Position numbers and translations under genes: made by a program. From the NCBI GenBank assembly GCA_050916035.1, contig CP050876.1, positions 700,727 through 764,726 of the forward strand: a DNA stretch of 64,000 nucleotides, in the 5' to 3' direction. This DNA comes from Vampirovibrio sp. (GTDB lineage Bacteria > Cyanobacteriota > Vampirovibrionia > Vampirovibrionales > JAJTHC01). The notes under the pieces were generated by a model. The model was not told where the DNA came from and ran no database searches. It saw nothing but the letters and a program-made list of their open reading frames with translations. Shown here piece by piece: positions 6,914 through 30,235 of the stretch. Positions within the stretch are counted from its first letter, which is position 1. Every line of letters starts with the position of its first letter.

Positions 6914-8341
6914 ATGAGCGTGGGGAATTTCATGAAACGTCTGTGCATTTTAAGTCTAAGTAGCCTTGTGTGCCTGCTATGCATGAGTGTAGGGTTGCCC
7001 GCATGGGGTGCTGAGTTACCTGTCGTTCAAAACTCTACCTTTGAATCGCTGTATGAGACAGCCATCAAGCAAAATCCAGATATTAAAGTGCTTCAAGAAA
7101 GCTTGCAGGTTTCTCAGCAAGATATTGTCATTGCAGGTTATATTCCTAACCCGAGTTTGAATACCTATTGGGGCTGGGGTAAAATGACCTCCGTGTTGGG
7201 GAACCCGAATCAGGTGGGTTTACAGCAAACGTTGGAACTGGGGCCTAAACGGAAATTACGTACTTTAGATGCCCAACTCCAATACGACAAAGAAAAGGCA
7301 GGTTTGCAACAAGCCTTGTGGCAATTACGGAGTCATTTACGACTGGCGTATTTAGACTACTTGGCCACGGTGAGTCAAATGGAGCAGTTGGAAAAACAGT
7401 ATAGTTTGGTGAATCAGTTGATTCATATCGCGGAAGTTCGTTTCAAGGCGGGCAGTTCGCCTCAGGCGGATTTGATTCAGGCCCAGTTGAGTCAGTATCA
7501 ATTGAATCCTGTTCGTATTCAGCTTCAAGGCCAGTTGGTTCAAAATCAATGGAAATTGGCGCAGTGGGTGGGGTTGACGCAACGAGACGCCTTGCACTTA
7601 GACGGGAGCCATTCCGCATTGTTAGAACAAGTGCCGTATTGGAAGACCCCTGTGCCTGAAGCAGATTATTTGACTTGTCTAGCCAAGCTTAAGCAGTTTG
7701 GACGCCAACATCGCCAAGAACTTAAAATCGCCTTACAGCAAGTGGAACAAAGTCGTGTTCGCTTGAAGGCGAGCAAGTTACAACGTATTCCTGATCCACA
7801 AATCGGTGGGGGGATTTTATTTGTCAATACGCTTTCTCCGCTTTCTAATATTAATGAAAAAGATAATTTTCTAGGGGGCTATGCGACTCTTAACGTCGCT
7901 TTGCCTATTTTTCATAATCAAGGCGGGGAAATCGCCAAGAGCAAGGCGCGTCTTTCGGTGGATGAAGGCAATGTTGAAGCCTTAGAATTTGCCATTGACA
8001 GTGGGATTCAACAGGCGGTGGTGGGGATTGAAACGCAGCAAAAAACCTTGGAAAATTACCGTAAACAATTGCTCCCGCAATCCCTGCAAGTCTTGCAATT
8101 AGCCGATTTAGGGTATCGCTACGGGAAAACAGGCTTGGCGAATGTAATTTTAGCGCGTCAGGCTTATCAAGCCATTCAGGTCGACTATATCAAAACCTTG
8201 GGGCAAGCTTGGCAGTCTTGGGCCGCTTTAGAACAACAAACGGGTTTACCTTTAGAAGTCTTGGTGAATGAATTACCGTGGTCGCAGCCGACTCAGGTGT
8301 ATCAACGGCCAAACTTGCCAACGCCTTTGGAAATACACTAA
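6914..8341 (+). CDS. TolC-family outer-membrane efflux factor (CzcC-like)
   Basis: 475-aa ORF with a signal peptide (LSSLVCLLCMSVGLPAWGAE). Two tandem OEP-type helical repeats. First gene of an OMF-RND-MFP cluster; its stop overlaps the next start (TAATG). Confidence 0.8.
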   Translation: MSVGNFMKRLCILSLSSLVCLLCMSVGLPAWGAELPVVQNSTFESLYETAIKQNPDIKVLQESLQVSQQDIVIAGYIPNPSLNTYWGWGKMTSVLGNPNQVGLQQTLELGPKRKLRTLDAQLQYDKEKAGLQQALWQLRSHLRLAYLDYLATVSQMEQLEKQYSLVNQLIHIAEVRFKAGSSPQADLIQAQLSQYQLNPVRIQLQGQLVQNQWKLAQWVGLTQRDALHLDGSHSALLEQVPYWKTPVPEADYLTCLAKLKQFGRQHRQELKIALQQVEQSRVRLKASKLQRIPDPQIGGGILFVNTLSPLSNINEKDNFLGGYATLNVALPIFHNQGGEIAKSKARLSVDEGNVEALEFAIDSGIQQAVVGIETQQKTLENYRKQLLPQSLQVLQLADLGYRYGKTGLANVILARQAYQAIQVDYIKTLGQAWQSWAALEQQTGLPLEVLVNELPWSQPTQVYQRPNLPTPLEIH

Positions 8342-11300
8342 TGAAATGGTTAAACGTCCCTCAACAGGTGATGGGTTTTTTATTTCAGCACCGCGTATGG
8401 ACGCTTGTCGCAGGCTTAATCTTGATGGCCTTAGGCGTTTACCATTACCTTCATTTGCCTATGGAGGCGTATCCTGATTTTACCAATCCTTTGGTGCGCG
8501 TGATTACGCTTTACCCAGGAAAAGGGGCGGAAGAAGTTGAACGTTTAATTACGATTCCCATTGAAAAAGAATTAAATGGCCTCAAACGACAAATCCAGTT
8601 GCGTTCGGTGAGTATGTTTGGCCTTTCGGTGGTGTCTGTTGTTTTTCAGGATAACACGCCGTCTTCAGTGACTCGTCAACAGGTTTTAGAGCGTATTCGC
8701 CAAGCGGATGTGCCTGCGGATGTGAAGCCCGCTTTGGATCCTGATGCCACCCCGATTGGTGAAATTTTTCGCTATACTTTAGAATCTTCGTATTATGACA
8801 AGACCTCCTTAAAAGCCTTGCAAGAATGGGAAATGGAAAAAGCCTTTCGTCAAGTGCCTGGTGTGGTGGACGTGACCAGCTTTGGGGGGCCTCGAAAAAC
8901 GTATCAAGTTCAGCTGGATTCCGCTCAGCTGAAGTCTTATGATATTTCGGTAGAAGACGTCATGGAAGCGATTGCCGAGGCCAATGGCAGTACAGGAGCC
9001 AATACCATTGATGTGAATCATCAAGCCTTTGCAGTGCGCGCTTTGGGTTTAATCAACAATATTGAAGATTTTAAACATATCGGGATTAAAACCAATGCGG
9101 AAACAGGCACGCCGATTCGCTTGGAAGACGTGGCCACCGTTAACGTCGCGCCTGCCTTACGCTTGGGCCAAGTGGGTAAAAATGCCGATGGCGATGCGGT
9201 GATGGGGATTGTCTTGATGCGACGAGGTGAAAATCCCGCCAAAGTCTTGAATACGCTCTATCAAGTCTTGCCCGATATTCGGGATAAATTGCCTAAAGGG
9301 GTGCTGATGAAGCCTCTTTATGACCGTATGGAACTGATGCGGCGGACCATGGAAACCATTGGAGAAAATGTACTTCATGGTATTGGATTGGTTTTAATTG
9401 TCTTGTTGATTTTTTTGGGAGACTGGCAAGCGGCTTTGATTTGTGCGTCGGTCATTCCTTTTTCATTATTGGTGTCTTTTAGTGGACTCACTTTTTTGGA
9501 TACGCCCGCGAATTTATTGAGCTTAGGGGCCATTGACTTTGGTATGATTGTAGACGGCACGGTGGTGATGGTGGAACATTTGGTGCATCGCTTAAGTCAA
9601 AAAGGTCGTGACTTGAGTCAAAAAGACCGTATCGCCTTGGTTCAACAATCTACGTTAGAAATGATTCGCCCGATTACGGTGGCCACTTTGGTGATTGGTT
9701 TAGGCTTTATTCCTATTTTTGGTTTTACAGGGGTGGCGGGTAAATTATTTCACCCCTTGGCCATTACCATGAATTTGGCTTTGTTTGGCGCCTTGCTCGC
9801 CAGCTTAACCTTGGTCCCGATTTTGGTATCCTTTTTTATGACGAAAAAGCCGTATAAAGAAGGACGAAATATTGTCTTAGACCTTCTAACCAAGGGCTAT
9901 AAGCGTTTACTTTTAAGCACGCTACGGTATAAAAAAATGGTGTTATGGGTGACATTGCTACTGATGTTCTTGGGCTTGGCGGTGACGACCAAGTTAGGCA
10001 GTGAATTTTTGCCTCAGTTGGATGAAGGAAATATCTGGCTGCGAGCGAATATTTTGCCCACCAGTGCGGTTTTACCCCAAGCCACGAAAACGGCGGATCA
10101 CATTAGGCGCATACTGGCCGCCTACCCTGAAGTTAAAAATATTGTGACCCAAGTGGGCTCTCCCGATGATGGGACGGATCCTAATTTACCGAGTAATATT
10201 CAGTGTTTGATTGATTTGTATCCCGCCAAGCGTTGGCGTCCTCAATGGCATGAAAATAAACAAGCCTTGGTCACGGCCATGGATCAAAGTTTGGATGAAA
10301 TTTTGGGGCTTCAAACCATGTTTTCTCAATATATTCAAGACAATGTGGATGAAGCCCTTTCAGGAGGTGCCAAAGCACAGGTGGCCTTGAAAATTTTTGG
10401 TTCTGACTTAAATACCTTACAACATGTGGCGCAAGACGTCTTGGAAGTGTTTCATCACACCAAAGGCATGACGGATGTCAGCCAAGATCGTATTTTGGGT
10501 CAACCTCAATACCGTATTGAATTGGATCGAGACGCCTTGAATCGCTATGGATTAAGTATTGATTCGGTGGAAGAAACGGTACAGATTGCCGTGGGGGGTC
10601 AAGTCATTACTCAGGTGCAAGAAGGAGAAAGGCGCTTCGACGTCGTTTTACGTTTAAATCCAGAAGACCGTTCTAGTCAACACGCCTTGCATACTTTGTT
10701 GATTCAGCTGCCTAATGGAGGGAGTATTCCGCTTCATAATGTGGCGCATATTAAAGAAGACAATGGGGCTTATTTTATTAATCGCTTTCAAAATGAACGG
10801 GTGGTGAATGTGGTGGCCAATGTCCGTGGGCGAGATTTGGGGGGCGCGGTGCAGGACGCTCAAAAACGATTTAAGCAAACGGTGACTTTACCAGAAGGTT
10901 ATCGGGTGGTGTGGGCAGGTCAGTACGACAAGCAACAAGAAGCCAATAGTAAACTCATGGTGGTGGCGCCGCTTACGTTGGTCACTATTTTTCTCTTGTT
11001 ACTCTTACTCTTTAGAAATATGGGTTTAAGTTTGATTGCGCTGTCTGCGATTCCGATTGCCTTGGTGGGTGGAATACTGAGCTTGTGGCTGACGGGGACG
11101 TATTTTTCTGTTTCGGCAGGGGTGGGCTTTTTAGCGGCTGCGGGGGTTTCGGTGCAGAATAGTATTATTTTAATTTCAGCCGTTTTACAAGCGTCTGAAA
11201 GCGTAACGCTTATGGCCATTTTTAAAGGCGCTGTGGAAAAATTACGTCCTATTTTAATGGCAGGCTTGGTGGCTATTTTGGGGCTCTTGCCCGCGGCCTT

Positions 11301-11469
11301 GTCTAATGGGATTGGGGCTCAAAGTCAAAAGCCCTTTGCCATTGCCATTATTGGCTCGCTTATTTTATCAACCGTCTTTTTGCCTTTAATTATTCCTGCT
11401 TTGCTCTTGCAATTTCGTTCTTCTCTTTCTCGTTTACCGTCCGCCAAAACAGGAGTCCCTCCACAATGA
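8341..11469 (+). CDS. CzcA/CusA-family heavy-metal efflux RND permease
   Basis: MKWLNVPQQVMGFLFQHRVWTLVAGLILMALGVYHYLHLPMEAYPDFTNPLVRVIT..., about 1040 aa with 12-TM RND architecture. I chose the ATG at 8341 (TAATG overlap with the upstream stop) rather than the ORF-track start at 8278. Confidence 0.9.
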   Translation: MKWLNVPQQVMGFLFQHRVWTLVAGLILMALGVYHYLHLPMEAYPDFTNPLVRVITLYPGKGAEEVERLITIPIEKELNGLKRQIQLRSVSMFGLSVVSVVFQDNTPSSVTRQQVLERIRQADVPADVKPALDPDATPIGEIFRYTLESSYYDKTSLKALQEWEMEKAFRQVPGVVDVTSFGGPRKTYQVQLDSAQLKSYDISVEDVMEAIAEANGSTGANTIDVNHQAFAVRALGLINNIEDFKHIGIKTNAETGTPIRLEDVATVNVAPALRLGQVGKNADGDAVMGIVLMRRGENPAKVLNTLYQVLPDIRDKLPKGVLMKPLYDRMELMRRTMETIGENVLHGIGLVLIVLLIFLGDWQAALICASVIPFSLLVSFSGLTFLDTPANLLSLGAIDFGMIVDGTVVMVEHLVHRLSQKGRDLSQKDRIALVQQSTLEMIRPITVATLVIGLGFIPIFGFTGVAGKLFHPLAITMNLALFGALLASLTLVPILVSFFMTKKPYKEGRNIVLDLLTKGYKRLLLSTLRYKKMVLWVTLLLMFLGLAVTTKLGSEFLPQLDEGNIWLRANILPTSAVLPQATKTADHIRRILAAYPEVKNIVTQVGSPDDGTDPNLPSNIQCLIDLYPAKRWRPQWHENKQALVTAMDQSLDEILGLQTMFSQYIQDNVDEALSGGAKAQVALKIFGSDLNTLQHVAQDVLEVFHHTKGMTDVSQDRILGQPQYRIELDRDALNRYGLSIDSVEETVQIAVGGQVITQVQEGERRFDVVLRLNPEDRSSQHALHTLLIQLPNGGSIPLHNVAHIKEDNGAYFINRFQNERVVNVVANVRGRDLGGAVQDAQKRFKQTVTLPEGYRVVWAGQYDKQQEANSKLMVVAPLTLVTIFLLLLLLFRNMGLSLIALSAIPIALVGGILSLWLTGTYFSVSAGVGFLAAAGVSVQNSIILISAVLQASESVTLMAIFKGAVEKLRPILMAGLVAILGLLPAALSNGIGAQSQKPFAIAIIGSLILSTVFLPLIIPALLLQFRSSLSRLPSAKTGVPPQ

Positions 11470-12734: not shown

Positions 12735-13553
12735 GTGGCTTTGACCTTACCTCTGGGGATTTTTTCCCCTAGAGGCATGACGGGCTTGTCGCTTTTATTG
12801 AAGCCCGTCGATAGAGCTTTTAATGGAGGTCATGCTCACCTAATGCTTTTCTCAACAGTAGATCTATCCTTTTTTTCAAGGTCTTTGGCAAAAAAAGTCA
12901 TAGGGGGCTTTTGTCTCGTAGGCTTTTGGGGACTGATGAGTCTTGGGACACTCCATACGCAGGCGCTTGAAAAAATGCCCTCCGCCAAGGTGCCTCCCGT
13001 TAGTGAAGCTTTGATTCCTTATGCCTTTCAACAAGTGATTCAATCTCATTTGAATCCTGTCTTCCCCATGGAGTCCGTGTCGAAACCTGCTGGGGTGACC
13101 GCTTTGCCTGTTTCGACTTTGTCTCAAAAACAATATCAACAGTATGTGAAGCAATGGTCTACGTTGTGGCCGTCTTTGGATGCGTTTACCACCCTTTTTA
13201 CACAAGCGGATATGGGTAAGGATGAAATTTCAGTGCAGTATTTGTCGGCCCGTATTGCCAATATTTTACTGTTGTATCATCATCGTTTTGCGGAGGCTCC
13301 CCAAGCCTATAGCACTTTAGCGAGCTTTCGGTCTTTGTCTCGTTTGACGGAACATTTGGAAGAATTACGCTCACTGTTGCAAGTGCAAGGACGTCCCGAC
13401 ATTGTACAGCGTCCTTTTCAGAATGATTTGGATGAAGAAGCCTTGGCGTATCAACGCTATTTTGTTCAAATTCGGCAAGATTTGGCCATTCTGAATGAGT
13501 ATCGGGATTTGTCTCGTTTATTGACGACGGATTTCCGAAAAACGGATCATTAA
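12735..13553 (+). CDS. Hypothetical protein; start uncertain (alternative Met at 12843 gives a signal-like N-terminus)
   Basis: 272-aa ORF downstream of the efflux cluster with no recognisable motifs. A 10-bp hairpin (cctctgggga..tcccctagagg, about 12754-12780) lies inside the annotated 5' end, which argues for a later start. Confidence 0.45.
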   Translation: MALTLPLGIFSPRGMTGLSLLLKPVDRAFNGGHAHLMLFSTVDLSFFSRSLAKKVIGGFCLVGFWGLMSLGTLHTQALEKMPSAKVPPVSEALIPYAFQQVIQSHLNPVFPMESVSKPAGVTALPVSTLSQKQYQQYVKQWSTLWPSLDAFTTLFTQADMGKDEISVQYLSARIANILLLYHHRFAEAPQAYSTLASFRSLSRLTEHLEELRSLLQVQGRPDIVQRPFQNDLDEEALAYQRYFVQIRQDLAILNEYRDLSRLLTTDFRKTDH

Positions 13554-15312: not shown

Positions 15313-17776
15313 TTAGGAGCTCTTGTGGTGCTTACTTTTTCCTGTGACGTCTTGCCACCAATATCCTACGTTTCTAAACCAACTTCCCACTCCACCGCCT
15401 TCTTCACGAAACCCATAAAGACTCGCGTCTGTACTTAAATGGGGATATTCCACAGGCTTTCCAATGCTTTCTTTTGTATGGACCATGCGGGCATTGGTGA
15501 GCGATGAATCATCCTCTAATCTGATATTAGAGCCTGCACCGTCTTTCAGACGCATATTCTTCAGCATGGCGCCCTGTTCTAGAGTGACGTCTACTTTTTT
15601 TTCCGTTAATGGCGCCTTCAGATATTTGGGTATTATTCCCCATAATCCTAAGATTATCGGCCTGGATATTGACGCGAGGCTCTTTTGATGGAATCTTACC
15701 CTCCTTACGTCCTGAGATATTTAAGGATGACATTATTTCCGGATTCTTCATTGTAACGTTAGAGGCAGTAATATCACTGCCTCCTATTAGACCCACATTA
15801 TATAGTTCGATTCCCCCTTCCGTCTCAACCTTGGCTATAAGAGTAGAGTTCTGTATACGAGGGTTTCTCGTACTACCTGTTTCGATATTTACGTTGCCGT
15901 ATGTACTATTGTCTACAGTGACCTGCTGAAACGGATCGGATTTAATGGGCTTACCATTGGGGGCTATTCTTTTTTCGGGATTGGCTTTAATGTCTAAAGA
16001 AGAGCCTTTGTTTAATCCGTTTACCTTAACCTTCTCATAGCCTTCTAGCTGGTTGGAAGAAGGCATGAGCGTATAATTGGTCTGTTCAGAAGCCCCAAGC
16101 GTAATGTTTGTATCCCTGTCGGAATGGTTTCGAAGGACAGTTGTGTCGTTAAAGTTACCATTCACTATAACGTCCTCGGTGGTATTATCGTTGATGTTAA
16201 CCTTTTGTGGAAATTCCTGAGTGCCGTTATTTTGCGTCACTTGTACCTTAGGGAGCTTGTTTCCTTCAATCGTGATTGTATTATCTGTCTTTAGAAGATT
16301 ATTGTGATTAGAAGACAGGTCTGAAACATAAATACCATCATCGTTTCGGTACGTCCCATAAACTGTACTATTGGTGATGGAAACGCCGTCATTTATTCCC
16401 CCTGTGATCGCCACTCGATCCGTTTTGACATGATCCAGATCAACATGCACAGTTGGTACCTTAGAAGTTGCTACTCCTCCTCCGCGCATAGTGTGCGTGC
16501 CTGAATTGTCAACGCGGACCTCTCCTATATTTAAAAGTTTTGCGGGCACCTCTTTTCCGCCTATATTTGTGGCCGGCTTTCCCTTCGCCTCGAGCCATAG
16601 GTTCGAGTCAATACTCGTCACATCGCCTAGGGTATCTTTAGCGTTAATCTGTAGCGTGGAGTCAAGCTTACCTGTAATATCCCCTAATGCTCCTTTAGCC
16701 TTTAAGGTTGCCCCGTTAGTAGCTAGTATTTCTTTAACCGCACGGCTATAGTTCCTGTCAAAGTTGTTCGACGGAAAAGCTGTTACGTCAACCTTCGCTC
16801 CCAAGGAGGCATTAACGAATTGTATCGCGTTATCACCTTCTGCCTGAATCGTAGTATTTAGAGGGATTTTTTCCGCCTCTTTAGCAATGCCCGTCCCCAT
16901 AGAAGAAACCGTGCCAATGGCATCGGGATATAATGCTGTAACAGTATTTTCAGCGTTTGCTATAACCTTCTCAACCATGGGCTTGCCTGTATTATTGCCC
17001 CAAGCATTCACGGTGAGATGAGCATTTCTACCAAGGTCCACGGTTTCGACCTTTGATTTTGGCGCAATGCTGAGGCTTTCTTGTGCCAAGGTCACGGAGG
17101 CATTGTTTACCTTTAAATGCTCAATCTGAGTGTTGTCTATTTGTAGCAAGGGCTTTTTTTCAATGCCAGGATTAGAAATACTAACATTTTTTAATTCACT
17201 ACCACTCATGAGGGCTCCCCCCGTCCCTGGCTCATGTATTAGAGTGTCAAACATATGATAAGAAACACCCTCTGTGGGGGCTTTGCCTTCTGCATAGCGA
17301 CTCACGTCCTCTAGTGTAAGCGTGGCGTCTGGTTTTGTATGTACGGCATCAATTATTTGAAGCCCTTGTGGTGTCTTTTTTATTCTTGCATCATCTAAAA
17401 TGACGTTTTTCAATTTAATGGTCTGATCAGGAGCAAAGTCTTGTCCGCTTAAGTCCATACCACTTAAATCGAGACGAGCCTTTAACGGTTCTTTGCTATT
17501 CGTGAATTCTGTAAGCATATATCTTGTGCGAAGCTCAGGAGGCAGGCGGAGGATCTGATCTGGGGTCATGGCTCCACTCTTTAGAATGGATTCCCCTGTC
17601 TCAGGGTTAGTCGTCGCTTCATTGATGTGTTTAATCACGCCATTGAGGTCTGGATCCCATTTGGATAAATCTCCCCCTAGGCGCACCTCCTTTAACAAAT
17701 CCCCTGCGTGCCGACTGGCTTGGGTCACGGCGGGATTTACTGCTTCTTTAGTCAAATTGGCGGTGGCTTCCGCCAT
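15313..17776 (-). pseudogene. Large beta-helix / pentapeptide-like repeat protein interrupted by a +1 frameshift in an A8 tract (ORFs 15527-17776 and 15313-15567)
   Basis: The 749-aa ORF ends in an unrelated basic tail (GKKSRRHSRTGRHAEEYASERRCRL*) immediately after A8. Deleting one A reads ...AINGKK VDVTLEQGAMLKNMRLKDGAGSNIRLEDDSSLTNARMVH..., continuing into the 84-aa ORF. Repeat-like N/G/T-rich sequence throughout (LDLSGMDLSGQDF; NVSISNPGIEKK; VNNASVTLAQ). No signal peptide. Confidence 0.7.
15595..15602 (-). other. A8 homopolymer (T8 on the plus strand) at the frameshift point
   Basis: The plus strand reads ctacTTTTTTTTcc. On the minus strand gga aaa aaa a|gta gac; the extra A causes the frame change. 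Confidence 0.9.
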
Positions 17777-18074
17777 TATTTCTTCTGTTCTCTTTTTTAC
17801 AAAATTTCCTGCAAAAACTCGATTTGTTTTAAATTGAAACTCATCATTTTCTTCCTTTTTTTGGGTTTAATGGGTCGACGTGCTTGTGTGGTCTATAGCG
17901 ATGTGACGACACACACGCCACATTGATGCTATGAGGGCATAAAACCTCAAACAAAGCATAAGGGTGCGAAAGGGGGGGTGCTTTAATAAAATTGTTACAT
18001 ATTGAAATATTCATCGTGTTTTTAAGGCTTTACAGTTCGCTGTGTTCCTCGTACACTGAAGCGTAATAAGATAA

Positions 18075-18145
18075 GGCGACATGGCCAAGTGGTAAGGCAG
18101 GGGTCTGCAAAATCCTTATCCCCAGTTCGAATCTGGGTGTCGCCT
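18075..18145 (+). tRNA. tRNA-Cys (anticodon GCA)
   Basis: GGCGACA/TGTCGCC acceptor stem. Anticodon loop CTGCAAA. T-arm CCCAG-TTCGAAT-CTGGG. Discriminator U73. Hand-folded cloverleaf of 71 nt. Confidence 0.9.
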
Positions 18146-18178
18146 TTTTTTTGCCTTTTTTAAATAGGCTTTCTACTA

Positions 18179-20440: not shown

Positions 20441-20451
20441 GTAAGCATCAT

Positions 20452-20491
20452 AAAAGAGCCTCTATTCTGGTTGAAGGGAGGCTCTTTTTTT
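20452..20491. terminator. Bidirectional intrinsic terminator between convergent genes
   Basis: aaaAGAGCCTCtattctggttgaaggGAGGCTCTttttttt. 8-bp stem with an A-run before and T7 after. Confidence 0.7.
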
Positions 20492-20496
20492 GTTAT

Positions 20497-21981
20497 TTAT
20501 ACTTCCGAAGCATCCAGTATGACAGGGACGGGTGCTTCAATGAGCGCGTCCACAGGAGGGACCACTTTCTTAGGGCGCCCTCTCTTTTTAGGGGCTTCTA
20601 CAGGAACTGTCTCTTCCGTATTGACTACTTCAAGCGTCTCTTCAACAAGCACAGGTGTTGCTATGGCTTGCGGAAGATTCGTTAAAATGACAGGTTCAAC
20701 GGTGGATTCAACCGAGTTTGGTGTTGCTTTGGCCGTCGTTTTTTCTGCCAGTGCCTTGGCTTCTGCGGCGGCTAAATCATTGGCTTCTTGAGCCGCTTTG
20801 ACCAAGTCTTCATCGGCTAACATCCGTTGACGGGCGGCTTCAATTTCGACTTTCATCGCCTCAGGTAAATCAGGACGCCCCTCATTCCACTGGGGCAAGT
20901 TACGAGACTTACGAATCAGCTTGATGGCCACATGCACTCGCCATTCATCAATGCGTAGTTGTTTGGCCACAATTTTATGAATCCCAATGGGAGGGGTGGG
21001 CAAATAGGGTTCGTACAACATTTGAATGGCTTGTAATTGATCCGAAGACACGGCCAAGGGGCGCTTGGGTAAATCCACCTTCGGCAAATTCATTTTTTGG
21101 CGAATTAAATTCATACCAAAAAATACTTTTAAGGGGTCTAGCTGTAATTCTTCACCCACAACGGTATGGAAATCAGGGTTGGGTAAAGGCAAGCACGTTC
21201 TGTAACGTTTTTCAATTTCAGCAAGTAATTCAGGTTCGACAAACATACGACGCTGCGGCGGACGTCCCCCGCCTCCACGTGGATTGAACCCGCTTCCCGG
21301 TGGGCGACCTTGATAAGGACGGCCTTGGTTTTGGTATCCACCACGATTTTGGTATCCACCACCACCAGCGCCTTGGCCTTGGTATCCGCCACCGCCAGTG
21401 CCTTGGCCTTGGTATCCACCACGATTTTGGTATCCACCCCCGCCAGCGCCTTGGCCTTGGTATCCACCACGATTTTGGTATCCACCACCACCAGCGCCTT
21501 GGCCTTGGTATCCACCACGATTTTGGTATCCACCACCACCAGCGCCTTGGCCTTGGTATCCACCACGATTTTGGTATCCGCCACCACCAGCGCCTTGGCC
21601 TTGGTATCCACCACGATTTTGGTATCCGCCACCACCAGCGCCTTGGCCTTGGTATCCGCCTTGATTTTGGTATCCACCACCGCCACCACCTTGGTTTTGG
21701 TATCCACCGCGGTTTTGGTATCCGCCACCACCACCTTGGCTTTGGTATCCGCCGCGGTTTTGGTAATTGTTTTGTCTCGGTGCATAGTTGGAACGTTGAT
21801 CTCCCCCTCCCTCAGGGGCTGAACCGTAGCCACCTTCAGGCTGAAATCCATTTTGCATGGGGGCATTACTTAGCGGTTCTTCTGGCGCACGTGTTTTATA
21901 TAGGCAATCAGGACAAATAATACGTTTGGGGTTCTTGGTTTCAAAGGTAATACCACACTTGGAACAATTGTTTTCGTACAT
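20497..21981 (-). CDS. Zinc-ribbon / RGG-GGYQ low-complexity / duplicated helical domain / AT-hook protein (function unknown, probable nucleic-acid binder)
   Basis: N-terminus CSKCGITFETKNPKRIICPDC (CxxC-x15-CxxC). Residues ~45-235 are GGYQNRGGYQGQGAGGGG repeats. Two ~55-aa related segments (LLAEIEKRYRTCLPLPNPDFHTVVGEELQLDPLKVFFGMNLIRQK and LQAIQMLYEPYLPTPPIGIHKIVAKQLRIDEWRVHVAIKLIRKS). KKRGRPKK encoded at 20566-20589. Confidence 0.75.
   Translation of the reverse strand: MYENNCSKCGITFETKNPKRIICPDCLYKTRAPEEPLSNAPMQNGFQPEGGYGSAPEGGGDQRSNYAPRQNNYQNRGGYQSQGGGGGYQNRGGYQNQGGGGGGYQNQGGYQGQGAGGGGYQNRGGYQGQGAGGGGYQNRGGYQGQGAGGGGYQNRGGYQGQGAGGGGYQNRGGYQGQGAGGGGYQNRGGYQGQGTGGGGYQGQGAGGGGYQNRGGYQNQGRPYQGRPPGSGFNPRGGGGRPPQRRMFVEPELLAEIEKRYRTCLPLPNPDFHTVVGEELQLDPLKVFFGMNLIRQKMNLPKVDLPKRPLAVSSDQLQAIQMLYEPYLPTPPIGIHKIVAKQLRIDEWRVHVAIKLIRKSRNLPQWNEGRPDLPEAMKVEIEAARQRMLADEDLVKAAQEANDLAAAEAKALAEKTTAKATPNSVESTVEPVILTNLPQAIATPVLVEETLEVVNTEETVPVEAPKKRGRPKKVVPPVDALIEAPVPVILDASEV
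21331..21770 (-). repeat. 48-bp (16-codon) tandem repeat array inside the coding sequence, with degenerate flanking units
   Basis: The motif ccacgatttt recurs at 21419, 21467, 21515, 21563 and 21611, an exact 48-bp period. Unit: ttggtatccaccacgattttggtatccaccaccaccagcgccttggcc. Looser copies lie on both sides. Confidence 0.9.
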
Positions 21982-22700
21982 GCGCTCAACATAAGCCTCT
22001 ATTTATTTTATAAATCTTATAAATCGTAATAACGATGATGTTATATCAGGTTTAAAGTGTTAAATGATTAGGGTCAGGGTGCAAATTTGTATTTTATTTA
22101 ATCTATTTAACGCGTACAATCCTCTTTTTTAGTCTTTATATAATATTTTGACGTGAATGAAGGTTTTTGAAATTTTAAACATAAAGCCTAAAATGGGCTA
22201 ATTAAGGATAAAACCAATGAAGGTTAGATAAAATCTAAAGTGAAAACATATATTTTTTAATATGATTAAACGGCGTACTTTATATTTAATTTGCTTTGAA
22301 AATAAATTAAGATATTATTTTTGATCACTCTTACTTATGAACGGCTTGTCAGTGATGTGCAGTTAATTAACTGAAAGTATAGCACAGTATTTTTAAGTAA
22401 AACATAAAATTCACGTAAAGAACACTTCTTATTTTAAGATTAGGCACCAAAATATCTTCTTATTTTATAATTCTAACATATAAAAAGGTGAGTTTCTTAA
22501 AATTGTAACATTTACTTTTGCATTTATTTTTTTAAATAAAGGTGATTTATTTTGATTTCAAAGGCTTTTTATCATGTTTTGACTGTGTTTTTCGCCCAAG
22601 AATATTTGTTACATTTAAGAGCTCCCCCGAAAGGTGGGTTTAATTCATAATGAAACTACGTTAAGATAGAAATGCCGTTTATTTAATTACATGGAAAGGA

Positions 22701-23732: not shown

Positions 23733-25067
23733 ATGAAACTTGCTGTCATTGGTTCAGGATATGTCGCAAATGTGACGGGGGCTTGTTTCGCTGCCATGGG
23801 GCATGAAGTGACGGTCGCCAGCTTGGATGTGGAGCGCATTGAACGCTTGAAAGAAGGCATTGTCCCCTTTTATGAAGAAGGCTTGGAATCCATTGTTAAA
23901 ACGGAATTGGCGAATCAACATTTGCACTATACCACTGATTTACGGGGGGCGTGTCGCGATGCTGGTATTATTTTCTTATGTTTGTCTTCCCCGCCTCTGC
24001 CTGATGGAAAGCCCGATACCAAACAATTAGCCCAAGTGTTGGAAACCATTCTGCAGGACTTTCATTCGGGGTATCGTTTATTGGTGGAGAGGCATAATTT
24101 CCCTGCGGGTACAGGAGAGTGGATCAAGAAGGAATTACAACGCTTGCGTCCTTCAGGCAGTACGGCGACGATAGAGGTGGCCAGTGTGCCTCAGTTTTTG
24201 AGAGAAGGCCATGCGGTGAATGATTTTTATCACCCTGACCGCTTGATTATTGGGGCGGAGACACAGCGTTCTAAAGAATTGTTGATGTCTCTCTATGAAG
24301 AAGTCCCTGCCCCTATTTTAATGACAGATGTCACCACGGCAGAACTGATTAAGCAAAGTACCAACGCTTTTTTAGCGATGAAAATTTCTTTTATGAATTC
24401 CATGGGTCAGTTGGCTGAAAAATGTGGCGCAGACGTTGAAATGGTGGCCAAGGGCTTGGGGATGGACAAACGTATTTCGCCTCACTTTTTGCACGCAGGC
24501 ATTGGGTATGGAGGGATCTTTCTCCCTCAAGATGTTCAATCCTTGAGCTATTTAGCGAGCCAGTATCATTTAAATTTGGATTTACTGAAAGCCACGGAAA
24601 CGGTGAATCGTTATCAACGGATTAGTTTTATTGAACGGGTGGAAAAAGCCTGCGGGGGACAATTGGCAGGGAAAACCGTCGCTATATGGGGCTTGGCCTA
24701 TCGCCCGAATACGGATGATATGCGTGATTGTCCCTCTACTCAAATTATTTGGGGCTTGCAAAACCGTGGGGCAACCGTCAAGGCCTATGATCCCATTGCC
24801 ATGCCTTCCGCCGAACATAAGGTGCGACGTGTTCAATTTTGTGAAGATTTGTATCATTGCGCCAAGGAAGCGGATGTCATTGCGATTTTGACCGAATGGC
24901 CTGAGTTTTCTCAAGTGAATTTTAGTCAATTGAGAGCGTCGACCACCTGTCGTTTAATCGTGGATGGCCGTAACCTTTTTAATCCACACCGTATGCAAGA
25001 ACAGGGTTTTACCTATTATTCGGTGGGACGAAAATCGACCTTCCCTGAAAAAACCTGCCCTTTGTAA
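23733..25067 (+). CDS. ugd: UDP-glucose 6-dehydrogenase / nucleotide-sugar dehydrogenase
   Basis: MKLAVIGSGYVANVTGACFA (Rossmann fold), EFLREGHAVNDFYHPDRLIIG, GIGYGGIFLPQDV (Cys replaced in GG-x-F/C-L-P-K-D context), GLAYRPNTDDMRDCPS. Confidence 0.8.
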   Translation: MKLAVIGSGYVANVTGACFAAMGHEVTVASLDVERIERLKEGIVPFYEEGLESIVKTELANQHLHYTTDLRGACRDAGIIFLCLSSPPLPDGKPDTKQLAQVLETILQDFHSGYRLLVERHNFPAGTGEWIKKELQRLRPSGSTATIEVASVPQFLREGHAVNDFYHPDRLIIGAETQRSKELLMSLYEEVPAPILMTDVTTAELIKQSTNAFLAMKISFMNSMGQLAEKCGADVEMVAKGLGMDKRISPHFLHAGIGYGGIFLPQDVQSLSYLASQYHLNLDLLKATETVNRYQRISFIERVEKACGGQLAGKTVAIWGLAYRPNTDDMRDCPSTQIIWGLQNRGATVKAYDPIAMPSAEHKVRRVQFCEDLYHCAKEADVIAILTEWPEFSQVNFSQLRASTTCRLIVDGRNLFNPHRMQEQGFTYYSVGRKSTFPEKTCPL

Positions 25068-25080
25068 GAGGTGTGACCCT

Positions 25081-25605
25081 ATGTCGAGCGTACCCGTTTT
25101 TTTGACTCAGTTGGGTGTGTTTCGCTTGCTAGGATTGTTTTTTTTAACGTGGGCGTCTTTTATGCTTTTTTTAAGTGTGCTTCCCTTTCAGGGCCCCGCC
25201 TTGCTGGAATGGACGTATTATGTGATGCGCGATTATAGGCATCTCCAAAAGGCACAGGTTTGCCCTCCTGAAGAGGCCTCCTCCTCATCGTCCTTGCGTT
25301 TGTGTCTAACTCAAGATCCTTTCCCCTGCCGTGCGTTAACTGACTTGCCTAAGACGTTTGCGTCGCTTCGTGTGGGGGATTCCGTTTATGTCTATGCCCC
25401 AGCCCATCAGCCTTGGAAGCGTCTTGAAATCACTTTAGGGACGCCTTTTTATTTGTTGCTAGGCATTCTGCCGTTAATGTTCTGTTTTTGGTGGGGATGG
25501 CGGATGATCCTTTCCTTTAACGTGGCCAGAGAAGGGCGCGTGAGTCCTTATGAAATGAAGCGTCGCTTGATGAGAGGTGTGTATAAGAATAAGGGGCCTC
25601 GTTAG
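25081..25605 (+). CDS. Hypothetical membrane protein
   Basis: The ATG at 25081 gives MSSVPVFLTQLGVFRLLGLFFLTWASFMLFLSVLPF (TM segments) plus a second hydrophobic pair near the C-terminus. The ORF-track start at 24964 overlaps ugd and is unlikely. Confidence 0.5.
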   Translation: MSSVPVFLTQLGVFRLLGLFFLTWASFMLFLSVLPFQGPALLEWTYYVMRDYRHLQKAQVCPPEEASSSSSLRLCLTQDPFPCRALTDLPKTFASLRVGDSVYVYAPAHQPWKRLEITLGTPFYLLLGILPLMFCFWWGWRMILSFNVAREGRVSPYEMKRRLMRGVYKNKGPR

Positions 25606-30163: not shown

Positions 30164-30235
30164 TGCGTCCACTGAGATTCGAACTCAGGACCTTTCCCTT
30201 AAAAGGGGACTGCTCTACCGCTGAGCTATGGACGC
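30164..30235 (-). tRNA. tRNA-Lys (anticodon UUU)
   Basis: Reverse complement: GCGTCCATAGCTCAGCGGTAGAGCAGTCCCCTTTTAAGGGAAAGGTCCTGAGTTCGAATCTCAGTGGACGCA. Acceptor GCGTCCA/TGGACGC. Anticodon loop CTTTTAA. T-arm CTGAG-TTCGAAT-CTCAG. Confidence 0.9.

Follow-up and report, generated by a model that had tools for sequence, protein, structure and literature searches.

What does a bacterium do with a protein that reads in part like FUS? The question is raised by a 494-aa open reading frame with an ATG start, found at 20497..21981 on the minus strand of a 64,000-nucleotide stretch of Vampirovibrio sp. DNA (hereafter the window). A preliminary description had proposed, in this order, a zinc ribbon, a FUS-like RGG/GGYQ array, a duplicated helical segment, an acidic/Ala linker, and an AT-hook. 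This five-part order is correct with small corrections only, and the same architecture recurs in hundreds of genomes, which puts it far outside what chance would produce. Unless marked otherwise, all features described below lie, like the gene, on the minus strand.

The gene is intact and lies in a housekeeping context

The ORF listing gives a complete coding sequence of 494 aa plus stop (20497..21981), whose M1 and N-terminus are invariant in 57 aligned homologues. Four other long ORFs run across the repeat (21138-21866 on the minus strand; 21300-21920, 21310-21822, and 21398-21664 on the plus strand), and these are by-products of the repeat periodicity. We searched the 64-kb window for a second copy and found none. 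The gene is monocistronic here, with a divergent PHP gene on one side and a convergent GGDEF gene on the other. Just 5' of the start codon, the conserved block ATAGAGGCTTATGTTG (21982..22002), with a GAGG Shine-Dalgarno-like core, is almost invariant between the window and six relatives, with a single mismatch in 16 nt; the surrounding intergenic DNA has otherwise diverged among them. Directly 3' of the stop codon, RNA folding revealed a terminator-like hairpin with a U-tract (20451..20488; −18.4 kcal/mol, z-score −6.4 versus shuffles). An A-tract on the far side of the hairpin suggests that it serves the convergent GGDEF gene too. A simple promoter/terminator scan overlooked this hairpin, probably because the apical loop region is above the limit of the scan, and found promoter-like sites no more often than in shuffled sequence. 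An Rfam scan of 18-24 kb returned tRNA-Cys only and no leader RNA family, and PHROGs and PADLOC linked the gene to neither mobile elements nor defense systems. The gene shows no sign of decay and is highly conserved in relatives, contrary to the possibility, raised in the preliminary description, of a decaying ORF that close relatives lack.

The surroundings of the family gene (X) vary with lineage. In 37 Gastranaerophilales loci the order is dtd-X-rimM-trmD, with junctions of 0-6 nt or overlapping genes and with rlmN nearby. The nearest relatives show the order X-secE-nusG, and in Chloroflexota X lies upstream of ftsH in 2/2 loci. The linkage to rimM/trmD is found neither in Vampirovibrionales nor at the window locus. 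The genomic context is a housekeeping, syntenic location. As operon partners, rimM and trmD point to RNA and ribosomes as much as to DNA, a point against a DNA reading of the protein.

The family is class-wide and carries no name

The taxonomic range of the homologues, left to be profiled by the preliminary description, proved to be class-wide. The family occurs in at least 583 species-level genomes; every one that can be classified belongs to Vampirovibrionia, among them Vampirovibrio chlorellavorus and Gastranaerophilales of the gut. Vampirovibrionia are non-photosynthetic relatives of the cyanobacteria. All lineages sampled from the class have the gene, with apparently one copy per locus. 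A distant sister family of the same architecture exists in Ktedonobacteria (Chloroflexota): its members, for example Dictyobacter KDK_15410 and Ktedonobacter KSC_056080, are about 30% identical and are true distant homologues that also have the zinc ribbon, a disordered linker, and tandem helix-turn-helix (HTH) domains. They differ in their linker, which is mostly Pro/Arg/Ala(/Gly) with Tyr in some members only, and lack the LPLPNPD and EWRVHV motifs; they too are annotated as hypothetical proteins.

Between orders, the HTH pair shares 57-66% identity, whereas the window RlmN and that of Gastranaerophilales share only 47-49%. The HTH pair and the zinc ribbon show the degree of conservation usual for core machinery, above that of RlmN, and both folded ends are under strong purifying selection. 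Sequence comparison thus points to a vertically inherited, housekeeping, and undescribed family. Scans of the protein with Pfam, NCBIfam, PHROGs, and PADLOC gave nothing significant, and every named homologue is annotated "hypothetical protein." A profile search combining both phyla turned up no additional relative with a name or annotation among the 120 best matches listed, and our literature search found no paper describing the family. The initial impression that this is not a described bacterial family is borne out by these results.

Many database entries for the family are shortened (homologues of 170-240 aa). An isoform without the zinc ribbon was considered for these entries and rejected: re-reading of the DNA gave the full ORF wherever the contig permitted, and the frame is intact in 67/67 loci uncut by a contig end. 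The shortened entries are explained by miscalled internal starts or by contigs broken inside the repeat.

The conserved core is a predicted pair of homeodomain-like HTH domains

A helical segment present in two copies had been noted before, and the internal duplication is genuine (hhalign of one half against the other: probability 98.6%, E 1e-15, 33% identity). HTH1 with its basic N-terminal arm spans residues 246-300 (21082..21246; helices 250-263, 271-278, and 283-296), and HTH2 spans residues 312-361 (20899..21048; helices 313-326, 334-342, and 346-359). AF2 models the two as three-helix bundles, each with a pLDDT of about 90. Conserved basic arms precede helix 1 (PKK / PKRK). That of HTH2 forms the conserved basic inter-domain linker LPK..PKR.LAV (residues 301-311; 21049..21081), around which L299, P305, K306, R307, L309, and A310 are invariant. 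The motif Y-x-P-x-LP-x-PP-[IV]-G-[IV]-H-K in HTH2 is common to the Chloroflexota family, and each putative recognition helix has an Arg (R54 and R117) that does not vary even across the two phyla. HTH1 has a net charge of −2. Model and conservation together indicate that the duplicated segment is a tandem three-helix homeodomain-like HTH pair and the real conserved core of the family.

How close is this pair to homeodomains? The Pfam Homeodomain profile (PF00046) matched HTH1 in 16 of 24 relatives at E<=1 (best 6.3e-7), and one member, P0400, carries a precomputed PF00046 tag. The window protein had no PF00046 match at E<=1 and stayed below the gathering threshold of 22.9 bits, which was passed by P0078 only (25.5 bits) among the seven full-length Vampirovibrionia relatives scored. 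The best PDB sequence matches of HTH1 by hmmsearch were NK-2 homeodomains at E 0.05 (all E >= 0.05), and HTH2 matched no HTH family by sequence. Chloroflexota relatives gave near-threshold matches to HTH_23 and Sigma70_r4_2, one of them falling just below the HTH_23 threshold (24.4 vs 24.6 bits). Helix 3 of homeodomains bears the signature Trp-Phe-x-Asn-x-Arg. This signature is not kept: when VFFGINLIRQKM is set against VKIWFQNHRYKM in the HMMER alignments to NK-2 homeodomains, the Arg and Lys positions align and the Trp-Phe and Asn positions do not. We therefore class the protein as homeodomain-like and not as a homeobox protein.

In Foldseek searches nearly all top matches were DNA-bound HTH proteins, led by the DUX4 double homeodomain, POU domains, and tandem engrailed homeodomains (PDB 6e8c, 9pfo, and 6m3d), although all matches were statistically weak (E >= 0.06). 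Single homeodomains aligned with a TMt of 0.5-0.65 and an rmsd of about 3 Å (2.8-4.2 Å) over 57 residues at E about 1. Weak matches also included SelB-SECIS RNA (E 0.12) and a Mos1 transposase; the full-length model returned nothing beyond the matches of the domain model. The eukaryotic tethered double-HTH proteins, which are the best fold matches, have in common with the window protein two three-helix units, a short basic linker, and an N-terminal basic arm on each unit. Unlike them, the window protein is bacterial, its HTH pair being joined to a zinc ribbon and a low-complexity linker of roughly 200 aa, and the matches are non-significant. Pfam, NCBIfam, and Foldseek gave no match of the ordered domains to a characterized family of unrelated function, the finding that, according to the preliminary description, would have overturned its proposal. 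Bundles of three helices are also widespread and able to bind RNA or protein, a point against the DNA reading.

The N-terminal zinc ribbon is conserved as strongly as the HTH pair

Conservation, AF2, and profile search concur on a zinc ribbon at residues 1-32 (21886..21981), with the pattern C6xxC9-x13-C23xxC26. The spacing had been given as CxxC-x15-CxxC, which is wrong: 13 residues separate C9 from C23, and the Chloroflexota relatives have the identical spacing. The four Cys and K8, F13, T15, K16, N17, P18, and R20 are invariant in 57 sequences, and the region is as strongly conserved as the HTH pair. In the AF2 model (pLDDT 86-95; beta strands 2-5 and 12-15), the four Cys lie in two CxxC knuckles on predicted beta-hairpins; zinc binding itself is putative. 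A profile search gave weak matches to zinc ribbons in TFIIB, in ribosomal proteins, and in two RNA polymerase subunits, RPA12 (E 4e-4) and RpoP. The FmdB-type Zn_ribbon_8 profile (PF09723, threshold 34.4 bits) scored the window protein at 10.7 bits (E 0.55) and its relatives at 11-13 bits. Matches of the zinc-ribbon profile to C2H2 fingers were discounted because only the CxxCGKxF knuckle fits and the score is summed over repeated fingers.

The linker turns over fast and keeps its composition

Zinc ribbon and HTH pair are joined by a low-complexity linker of GGYQNR / GGYQGQ units (residues 33-245; 21247..21885), delimited by composition, repeat register, and AF2, and predicted to be disordered (pLDDT <50 at residues 33-47 and 49-238). 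Its low-complexity stretch, previously put at some 190 residues, measures about 205 aa (about residues 41-245) and consists of 43% G, 17.5% Q (both counted over residues 41-240), 11% Y, 8% N, and 7% R. The proposed likeness to FUS-type low-complexity/RGG sequences is upheld by composition: residues 33-245 hold 22 Tyr and 16 Arg+Lys in 213 residues with almost no hydrophobic residues, and the protein contains nine RGG. Within the linker lies a tandem DNA repeat (21379..21765) with a period of 48 nt (16 aa) and 8.1 copies, which Tandem Repeats Finder scored at 599 with 92% matches. Four identical 16-aa units, YQNRGGYQGQGAGGGG, nearly identical in DNA too, are accompanied by four or five variants. 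The near-perfect repeat reported at first is thus real at the DNA level, but its unit is 16 aa; the 18-residue string given for it is the unit plus two flanking residues. When codon usage was examined for a sign of high expression, the window repeat showed a striking TAC/CGT bias. Across 67 relatives this bias does not recur (TAC was higher in 34 of 66), so we attribute it to the copying of one repeat unit.

We compared the linkers of 67 complete homologous ORFs. A linker of 71-258 aa is present in 67/67. W and C are absent, hydrophobic residues make up <1% each, and acidic residues are depleted; R averages 12% (range 8-19%) and Y 8%. The repeat units differ by lineage and turn over fast even between close relatives, yet they are nearly always built on GGY plus R/Q/N. 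The composition partly follows the base composition of the genome: Vampirovibrionales linkers are rich in Gly, those of Gastranaerophilales in Asn. Tyr is lacking altogether in one linker, and in Chloroflexota Pro, Ala, and Arg predominate. Some of the FUS-likeness may therefore reflect drift in a tether of which no more is required than solubility and flexibility. However, the retention of Arg, the presence of Tyr in all but one linker, the exclusion of hydrophobic residues, the depletion of acidic ones, and the independent re-invention of GGY...R argue for selection on composition. The exact GGYQ repeat is lineage-specific, and the Tyr/Arg/Gly(/Asn) character is common to the class.

For FUS-type domains a "sticker" grammar is established, in which phase separation is driven by Tyr and Arg (PMC10888811). 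Like FUS/EWS/TAF15, the linker is Gly/Gln/Tyr-rich, with Tyr at about 10% in regular G-G-Y-Q, interspersed Arg, and nine RGG, so that it resembles the FET combination of a Tyr-rich G/S/Q domain with RGG boxes by composition only. Unlike these proteins, it has almost no Ser, and its Tyr and Arg are interleaved in one domain and not split between two. The window array is a recent tandem repeat, and the likeness is compositional with no sign of homology. The Pfam scan found neither an RRM nor a RanBP2-type zinc finger, so the protein is not a FET member. A precedent from the same phylum is Synechocystis Rbp1, a glycine-rich RNA-binding protein with an RRM and a C-terminal Gly-rich region (PMC9333190). 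As in such cyanobacterial and plant proteins, a Gly/Arg/Tyr-rich region is attached here to a nucleic-acid-binding domain. Those proteins, however, are small, with an RRM and a short Gly tail, whereas the present family has a zinc ribbon, two HTHs, and an internal linker; with no RRM in the Pfam scan, the window protein does not belong among them.

The C-terminal region carries a clade-specific AT-hook

After HTH2 comes a conserved non-helical motif, LP.WNE.R.DLPE (residues 362-374; 20860..20898), in which W365, N366, R369, D371, and P373 are invariant or nearly so. AF2 models it as coil (pLDDT 62-80), and it may be a partner-binding motif. The acidic/Ala segment expected between the HTH pair and the AT-hook is present as a long helix (residues 375-415; 20737..20859), modeled by AF2 as a single helix over 374-415 (pLDDT 74-84, net charge −4); its sequence is poorly conserved beyond the nearest clade. 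Residues 416-494 (20500..20736) form an acidic C-terminal tail, predicted to be disordered (pLDDT about 41-52, net charge −5).

The tail contains the AT-hook KKRGRPKK (residues 465-472; 20566..20589). The published consensus is TPKRPRGRPKK, with an Arg-Gly-Arg-Pro core flanked by Lys/Arg (PMC11354804). PKKRGRPKK at 464-472 fits it, so the hook is canonical, as first described; it is, however, a clade-specific add-on and not a feature of the family. It lies in a disordered segment (pLDDT about 45-52 around the motif) and is kept in the nearest relatives (L001-L010) while the tail around it diverges, with two copies in L008. It also occurs in some rumen Gastranaerophilales and is absent from most of the family; it therefore cannot belong to the core mechanism. 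Myxococcus xanthus CarD and eukaryotic HMGA have an unfolded C-terminal domain with an acidic segment followed by RGRP AT-hooks (PMC4374960). Like CarD, a global factor working with RNA polymerase, the window protein is bacterial and has a disordered C-terminus with an acidic stretch and a canonical RGRP hook. CarD has four hooks and an N-terminal CarD_CdnL_TRCF domain; the window protein has one hook (two in L008), and Pfam detected no CarD_CdnL_TRCF domain in it.

Discussion

We propose, with a confidence that is about even, that the family is an undescribed housekeeping nucleic-acid-binding protein with a DNA-gripping double HTH and a multivalent linker, serving as an architectural or general transcription-associated factor. 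As a nucleic-acid-binding protein, it is most likely DNA- or nucleoid-associated. The double HTH would be the main module, gripping double-stranded DNA as double homeodomains, POU, and paired-type domains do, with the recognition helices in the major groove and the basic arms in the minor groove. [quoted passage not shown] Separated from the HTH pair by as many as about 200 residues, the zinc ribbon would bind a second site or partner, perhaps a further stretch of nucleic acid or part of the machinery for transcription or translation. The linker would be more than a spacer: spaced GGY and Arg "stickers" could make weak multivalent contacts with one another and with nucleic acid, and thereby bridge or cluster bound sites, possibly as condensates. 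Condensate formation by the linker is plausible. A protein working in this way would be an abundant architectural or general transcription-associated factor and not a pathway-specific regulator.

Could the target be RNA instead? The protein would then be an RNA chaperone or assembly factor in ribosome biogenesis, a counterpart of Gly/Arg-rich nucleolar or glycine-rich RNA-binding proteins, whose zinc ribbon, RGG/GGY linker, and helical domains bind rRNA, tRNA, or nascent transcripts. We consider this unlikely, but it draws on several observations: the 37 tight operons downstream of dtd and directly upstream of rimM and trmD, with rlmN nearby; the adjoining secE-nusG in the nearest relatives; the RGG and Tyr/Gly repeats, which are typical of RNA-binding proteins; the glycine-rich tails of cyanobacterial RRM proteins (PMC9333190); the weak likeness of the zinc-ribbon profile to ribosomal proteins and RNA polymerase subunits; and SelB-SECIS RNA in the Foldseek list. 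On the other hand, the fold matches are overwhelmingly DNA-binding HTH proteins, and the AT-hook and basic N-terminal arms are DNA minor-groove devices. Moreover, the rimM/trmD linkage is missing in Vampirovibrionales and at the monocistronic window gene, and Pfam detected no RRM, KH, S1, or CSD domain.

A conventional sequence-specific transcription factor, possibly autoregulated or with a small regulon, is a still more doubtful reading. The linker would then be a passive tether that drifts with GC content and slippage, and there would be neither condensation nor bridging. The tandem HTH architecture is in keeping with such a factor, as are the unconserved linker sequence, its variable length, its Gly-to-Asn shift by lineage, the lack of Tyr in at least one member, and the fast turnover of the arrays among close relatives. 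However, the HTH pair and zinc ribbon are conserved above RlmN, the gene is present, apparently as a single copy per locus, in all lineages sampled, and the Arg range and near-universal Tyr of the 67 linkers indicate selection on composition.

The architectural-factor reading has a bolder extension, to which we give about as little credence: an abundant bacterial counterpart of FUS-/nucleolin-type scaffolds, whose linker-driven condensates on nucleic acid organize a hub of transcription and ribosome biogenesis, or compact the nucleoid, in Vampirovibrionia. The hub would be a nucleolus-like compartment, with the double HTH and zinc ribbon as anchoring modules. Since the architecture is common to Vampirovibrionia and Chloroflexota, it would be ancient.

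That the ORF is an artifact or a decaying frame held open by the repeat, or a domesticated or mobile-element protein with a transposase-type paired HTH, could draw on the spurious ORFs in other frames, the shortened entries, the HTH_23 near-match (a domain common in IS630-type transposases), and the Mos1 match, but is extremely improbable and effectively refuted by conservation and synteny: the frame is open in all 67 uncut loci, both folded ends are under strong purifying selection, the gene is syntenic among housekeeping neighbors with one copy in the window, the short entries have their own explanation, and there is no PHROG or PADLOC match and no transposase catalytic domain (the DDE domain of the IS630/Tc1 type).

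Conservation above RlmN and class-wide spread make a central function almost certain. Members range from Gastranaerophilales of the human gut to Vampirovibrio chlorellavorus, a predator of algae, yet the family has neither a name nor a domain model nor a literature; it merits a domain model, as present gene calls are often shortened at the repeat. Its putative DNA-binding unit is unusually near the eukaryotic homeodomain in sequence and tandem layout, which bears on the origin of the fold. The linkers constitute a natural experiment: between the same two folded modules, a Tyr/Arg/Gly(/Asn) repeat has been built anew, independently, in dozens of lineages. With this set one can ask if bacteria obey the "sticker and spacer" rules worked out on eukaryotic proteins.

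The family gene and its product

In the ORF listing of the window, a single long ORF with an ATG start and a product of 494 aa occupies 20497–21981 on the minus strand; its coordinates are exactly those of the preliminary description. All five parts described there were seen on the translation: a four-cysteine motif (C6xxC9-x13-C23xxC26, with a spacer of x13 and not the x15 reported), a low-complexity stretch (~residues 41–245; G 43%, Q 17.5%, Y 11%, N 8%, R 7%, nine RGG), two mutually related helical segments (~residues 246–300 and 312–362), an Ala/acidic stretch on their C-terminal side, and an AT-hook, PKKRGRPKK (residues 464–472).

Tandem repetition of the low-complexity part is seen in the DNA (8.1 copies of a 48-nt period, 92% matches, score 599) and in the protein, where a 16-aa unit, YQNRGGYQGQGAGGGG, occurs in four identical copies with variants on either side. 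Codon use within the repeat (21379–21765) is skewed: Tyr is TAC in 91% of cases (background 25%), Arg is CGT in 75%, and GGG is avoided. This bias does not recur consistently in the linkers of relatives and thus probably reflects recent copying of one unit, not selection for expression. Four further long ORFs overlie the 48-nt repeat in a different frame or on the opposite strand (21138–21866 (−), 21300–21920 (+), 21310–21822 (+), and 21398–21664 (+)). Their translations are themselves periodic (e.g., PWPWYPPRFWYPPPPA), and we rejected them as genes: they are artefacts of the repeat periodicity.

The gene is conserved and intact

We searched for homologues with the non-repeat C-terminal half of the protein (E ≤ 1e-3). 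The query matched 853 proteins; those with a name, from Vampirovibrionales, Melainabacteria, or Gastranaerophilales, were each called "hypothetical protein". In a scan of one genome per species, at least 583 genomes encoded a relative. Absence from close relatives had been proposed as the sign of a decaying ORF; conservation in these species-level genomes argues the opposite, and the gene is conserved and intact. The best 80 of these genomes include Vampirovibrio chlorellavorus NCIMB 11383 and many human-gut or rumen Gastranaerophilales; among the 80, the closest relatives of the window protein come from freshwater Vampirovibrionales MAGs (95% folded-core identity).

Database entries for the family are often short, with no N-terminus. 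We re-read the DNA of 80 loci and found the zinc ribbon and a 71–258-aa linker in 67 of 67 ORFs that did not run off a contig. Short entries thus do not represent real short proteins: they stem from miscalled internal starts or from contigs that break within the repeat. Roughly half of the entries in the databases look like 170–240-aa proteins without a zinc ribbon. Where starts were miscalled, gene callers used an internal Met in helix 1 of the first helical domain (HTH1, residues 246–300). Truncated calls were seen at loci L001, L009, L010, L018, L019, L027, L066, L073, and L075 (proteins P0017, P0021, P0029, P0067, and others).

Four loci (L007, L020, L045, and L061) carry MAG labels of Gammaproteobacteria, a Coleofasciculaceae cyanobacterium, or Clostridium. 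The neighbour genes of L007 and L020 match Vampirovibrionales loci, those of L007 the nearest-relative clade (L002–L006) and those of L020 V. chlorellavorus; L061 has the Gastranaerophilales operon, and L045 is without conserved neighbours. Mislabelled or chimeric bins probably explain the four labels.

Folded modules are conserved and the linker keeps its Tyr/Arg character

The zinc ribbon is near-invariant beyond its cysteines (K8, F13, T15, K16, N17, P18, R20). So is the double helical core (with signatures such as LPLPNPD, PKR.LA, Y..(L)P.PPIG.HKI, and EWRVHV.I..IR), and a WNE.R.D.P signature is conserved after it. Core identity between the window protein and Gastranaerophilales is 57–63%; RlmN from those genomes is less similar to its window counterpart, at 47–49%.

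The linker sequence is unconserved and its tandem unit differs lineage by lineage: GGYQNRGGYQGQGAGGGG in this window, GGYQGGGGGYQNRPQQ in locus L004, GGGYQPRGGGYAPRDGG in locus L008, GGGYQQRPQ and GPRPGGFG in V. chlorellavorus, and GGYNRQ, GGYQQRNN, and GGYQSRGGYDNR in Gastranaerophilales. Linker composition is nonetheless constrained. Across 67 linkers, Trp and Cys are absent, Leu, Ile, and Val each stay below 1%, Arg ranges from 8 to 19%, Asp and Glu are at ~3% each, and Tyr averages 8% (zero in one linker). Part of the composition appears to track lineage-specific, probably base-composition, trends because Asn takes the place of Gly in Gastranaerophilales linkers. The Tyr/Arg character is maintained despite this shift.

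The core resembles tandem homeodomain-like HTHs

An AlphaFold2 model of residues 241–375, built on a 60-sequence alignment, gave two three-helix bundles (mean pLDDT 83). In the full-length model, the zinc ribbon forms two strands (pLDDT 86–95), residues 33–238 are predicted to be disordered (pLDDT <50), both helical domains reach pLDDT ~90, a single long helix spans residues 374–415 (pLDDT 74–84), and the AT-hook lies within a low-confidence tail. Profile-profile comparison of the two HTH halves (probability 98.6%, E 1e-15, 33% identity) bore out the proposed duplication as genuine.

Foldseek returned no PDB match at E < 1e-3. HTH modules bound to DNA made up nearly all of the top of the list. 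They included the DUX4 double homeodomain (E 0.06, probability 0.89), tandem engrailed homeodomains, and POU domains, as well as sigma factors, phage Mu Mor, and DNA-binding domains of the LuxR and LysR types. For single homeodomains the rmsd was ~3 Å over 57 residues. Of 24 family cores, 16 matched the Pfam Homeodomain model at E ≤ 1 (the best at 6.3e-7), one relative passed its curated threshold (25.5 versus 22.9 bits), and the window protein had no match to it. The best PDB sequences for the family profile were NK-2 homeodomains (E 0.05), via HTH1 only, and the helix-3 residues characteristic of homeodomains were absent from these alignments. Judged by model and profiles, the helical units are predicted homeodomain-like HTH domains with basic N-terminal arms; we rejected homeobox-family membership because those helix-3 residues are missing. 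For the zinc ribbon, the profile shows a weak likeness to the ribbons in RPA12, RpoP, TFIIB, and ribosomal proteins.

A sister family in Chloroflexota

We ran the core profile exhaustively against 1.84 billion representative proteins with HMMER, and only 109 representatives matched. A second group ranked below the Vampirovibrionia group (E 1e-14 to 1e-4), and its named members are Ktedonobacteria (Dictyobacter, Ktedonobacter, and Reticulibacter). In both families the N-terminal zinc ribbon has the spacing CxxC-x13-CxxC and a CG(K).F knuckle, and the tandem HTH carries Y.P.LP.PP[IV]G[IV]HK and an invariant Arg in both third helices. The sister-family linker is also long and disordered, but rich in Pro, Arg, Gly, and Ala, with GGYR-type repeats in some members (e.g., P0186). 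Some members gave near-threshold matches to HTH_23, HTH_24, or Sigma70_r4_2. The core-profile search found no tandem-HTH domain in another architecture, and a profile combining both phyla brought up no annotated relatives among the 120 best matches listed. In two of two Chloroflexota-type loci, ftsH (AAA + Peptidase_M41) lies 370–500 bp downstream on the same strand (L081, genes 8001–8909 and 9409–11307; L082, genes 8001–8894 and 9264–11180).

Genomic context

In the window the family gene stands alone, between a 720-bp AT-rich intergenic region followed by a divergent PHP-domain gene upstream and a convergent GGDEF gene downstream. Directly 5′ of the start, a 16-nt block with a GAGG core is near-invariant in the window and six relatives (one mismatch in 16 nt), and 3′ of the stop codon lies a strong hairpin with a U-tract (folding energy −18.4 kcal/mol, z −6.4). 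The intergenic region (21982–22700, ~39% GC) holds conserved TGTTACAAT / TG.TA.A.T boxes resembling extended −10 elements, at ~22440–22500 and at aligned positions in L002–L007. Lying ~460–500 nt upstream of the start codon, these putative boxes would mean either that the 5′ leader is long or that they are promoters of the PHP gene.

Elsewhere the neighbours, confirmed by Pfam outside the window, are housekeeping genes. The nearest relatives have PHP(−)/X-secE-nusG-gpmI, where X is the family gene. The window lacks this arrangement, and secE and nusG were not found anywhere in its 64 kb. Synteny with L002–L007 (95% identical core) stops at the stop codon (compared downstream of the gene, at 20441–20496 in the window), beyond which a convergent TPR and GGDEF pair replaces secE-nusG-gpmI. 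Just upstream of this pair is a tRNA-Cys(GCA) (18074–18146 (+)); a tRNA-Lys(TTT) lies at 30164–30235 (−). Window ORFs at 15527–17776 (−) (749 aa), 24964–25605 (+) (213 aa), and 12735–13553 (+) (272 aa) had no significant Pfam match. In V. chlorellavorus, the gene has serine dehydratase genes on one side and a phosphoribosyltransferase (Pribosyltran) gene on the other.

Thirty-seven Gastranaerophilales loci show (rlmN)-dtd-X-rimM-trmD, with X and rimM overlapping or 0–6 nt apart. In this operon X immediately precedes rimM, and rlmN is often found upstream (L028, L031, L033, L034, L037–L049, L055, L057–L068, L070–L072, L074, and L076–L080).

Discussion

The family gene encodes an intact, strongly conserved, unannotated protein in which a disordered Tyr/Arg/Gly-rich repeat joins a zinc ribbon to a double HTH; the window's clade adds an acidic helix and a canonical AT-hook (consensus TPKRPRGRPKK, PMC11354804). 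The double HTH would bind double-stranded DNA as tethered HTH pairs do, and the AT-hook would add a minor-groove contact on AT-rich DNA. A comparable C-terminus, acidic and with AT-hooks, is found in Myxococcus CarD (PMC4374960). The zinc ribbon may contact a second nucleic-acid site or a transcription or translation partner. Tyr and Arg drive phase separation of FUS-type domains (PMC10888811), and those of the linker could provide multivalent weak interactions. The features reported in the preliminary description are confirmed, and its interpretation finds partial support: an association with nucleic acids is well motivated, and condensate formation would be a plausible further property.

We consider an abundant architectural or general transcription-associated factor the most likely role, with about an even chance of being correct. 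The main rival, a role in RNA or ribosome biogenesis, draws on the rimM-trmD operon and the RGG/GGY composition, and we think it unlikely. Slightly more doubtful still is a conventional regulator whose linker is a passive tether. Nothing around the family gene pointed to a mobile element or to a defence island, and an artefactual or mobile-element origin is effectively ruled out.

Taken singly, the components are all modules of familiar kinds. The preliminary description recognised no described bacterial family in the combination it set out, and we likewise found no description of it in Pfam, NCBIfam, or the literature searched. The combination takes in class-wide conservation, a repeatedly re-invented FUS-like linker, and a homeodomain-like tandem HTH. 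We regard the proteins as an uncharacterised family of putative HTH nucleic-acid-binding proteins with an unusual architecture.
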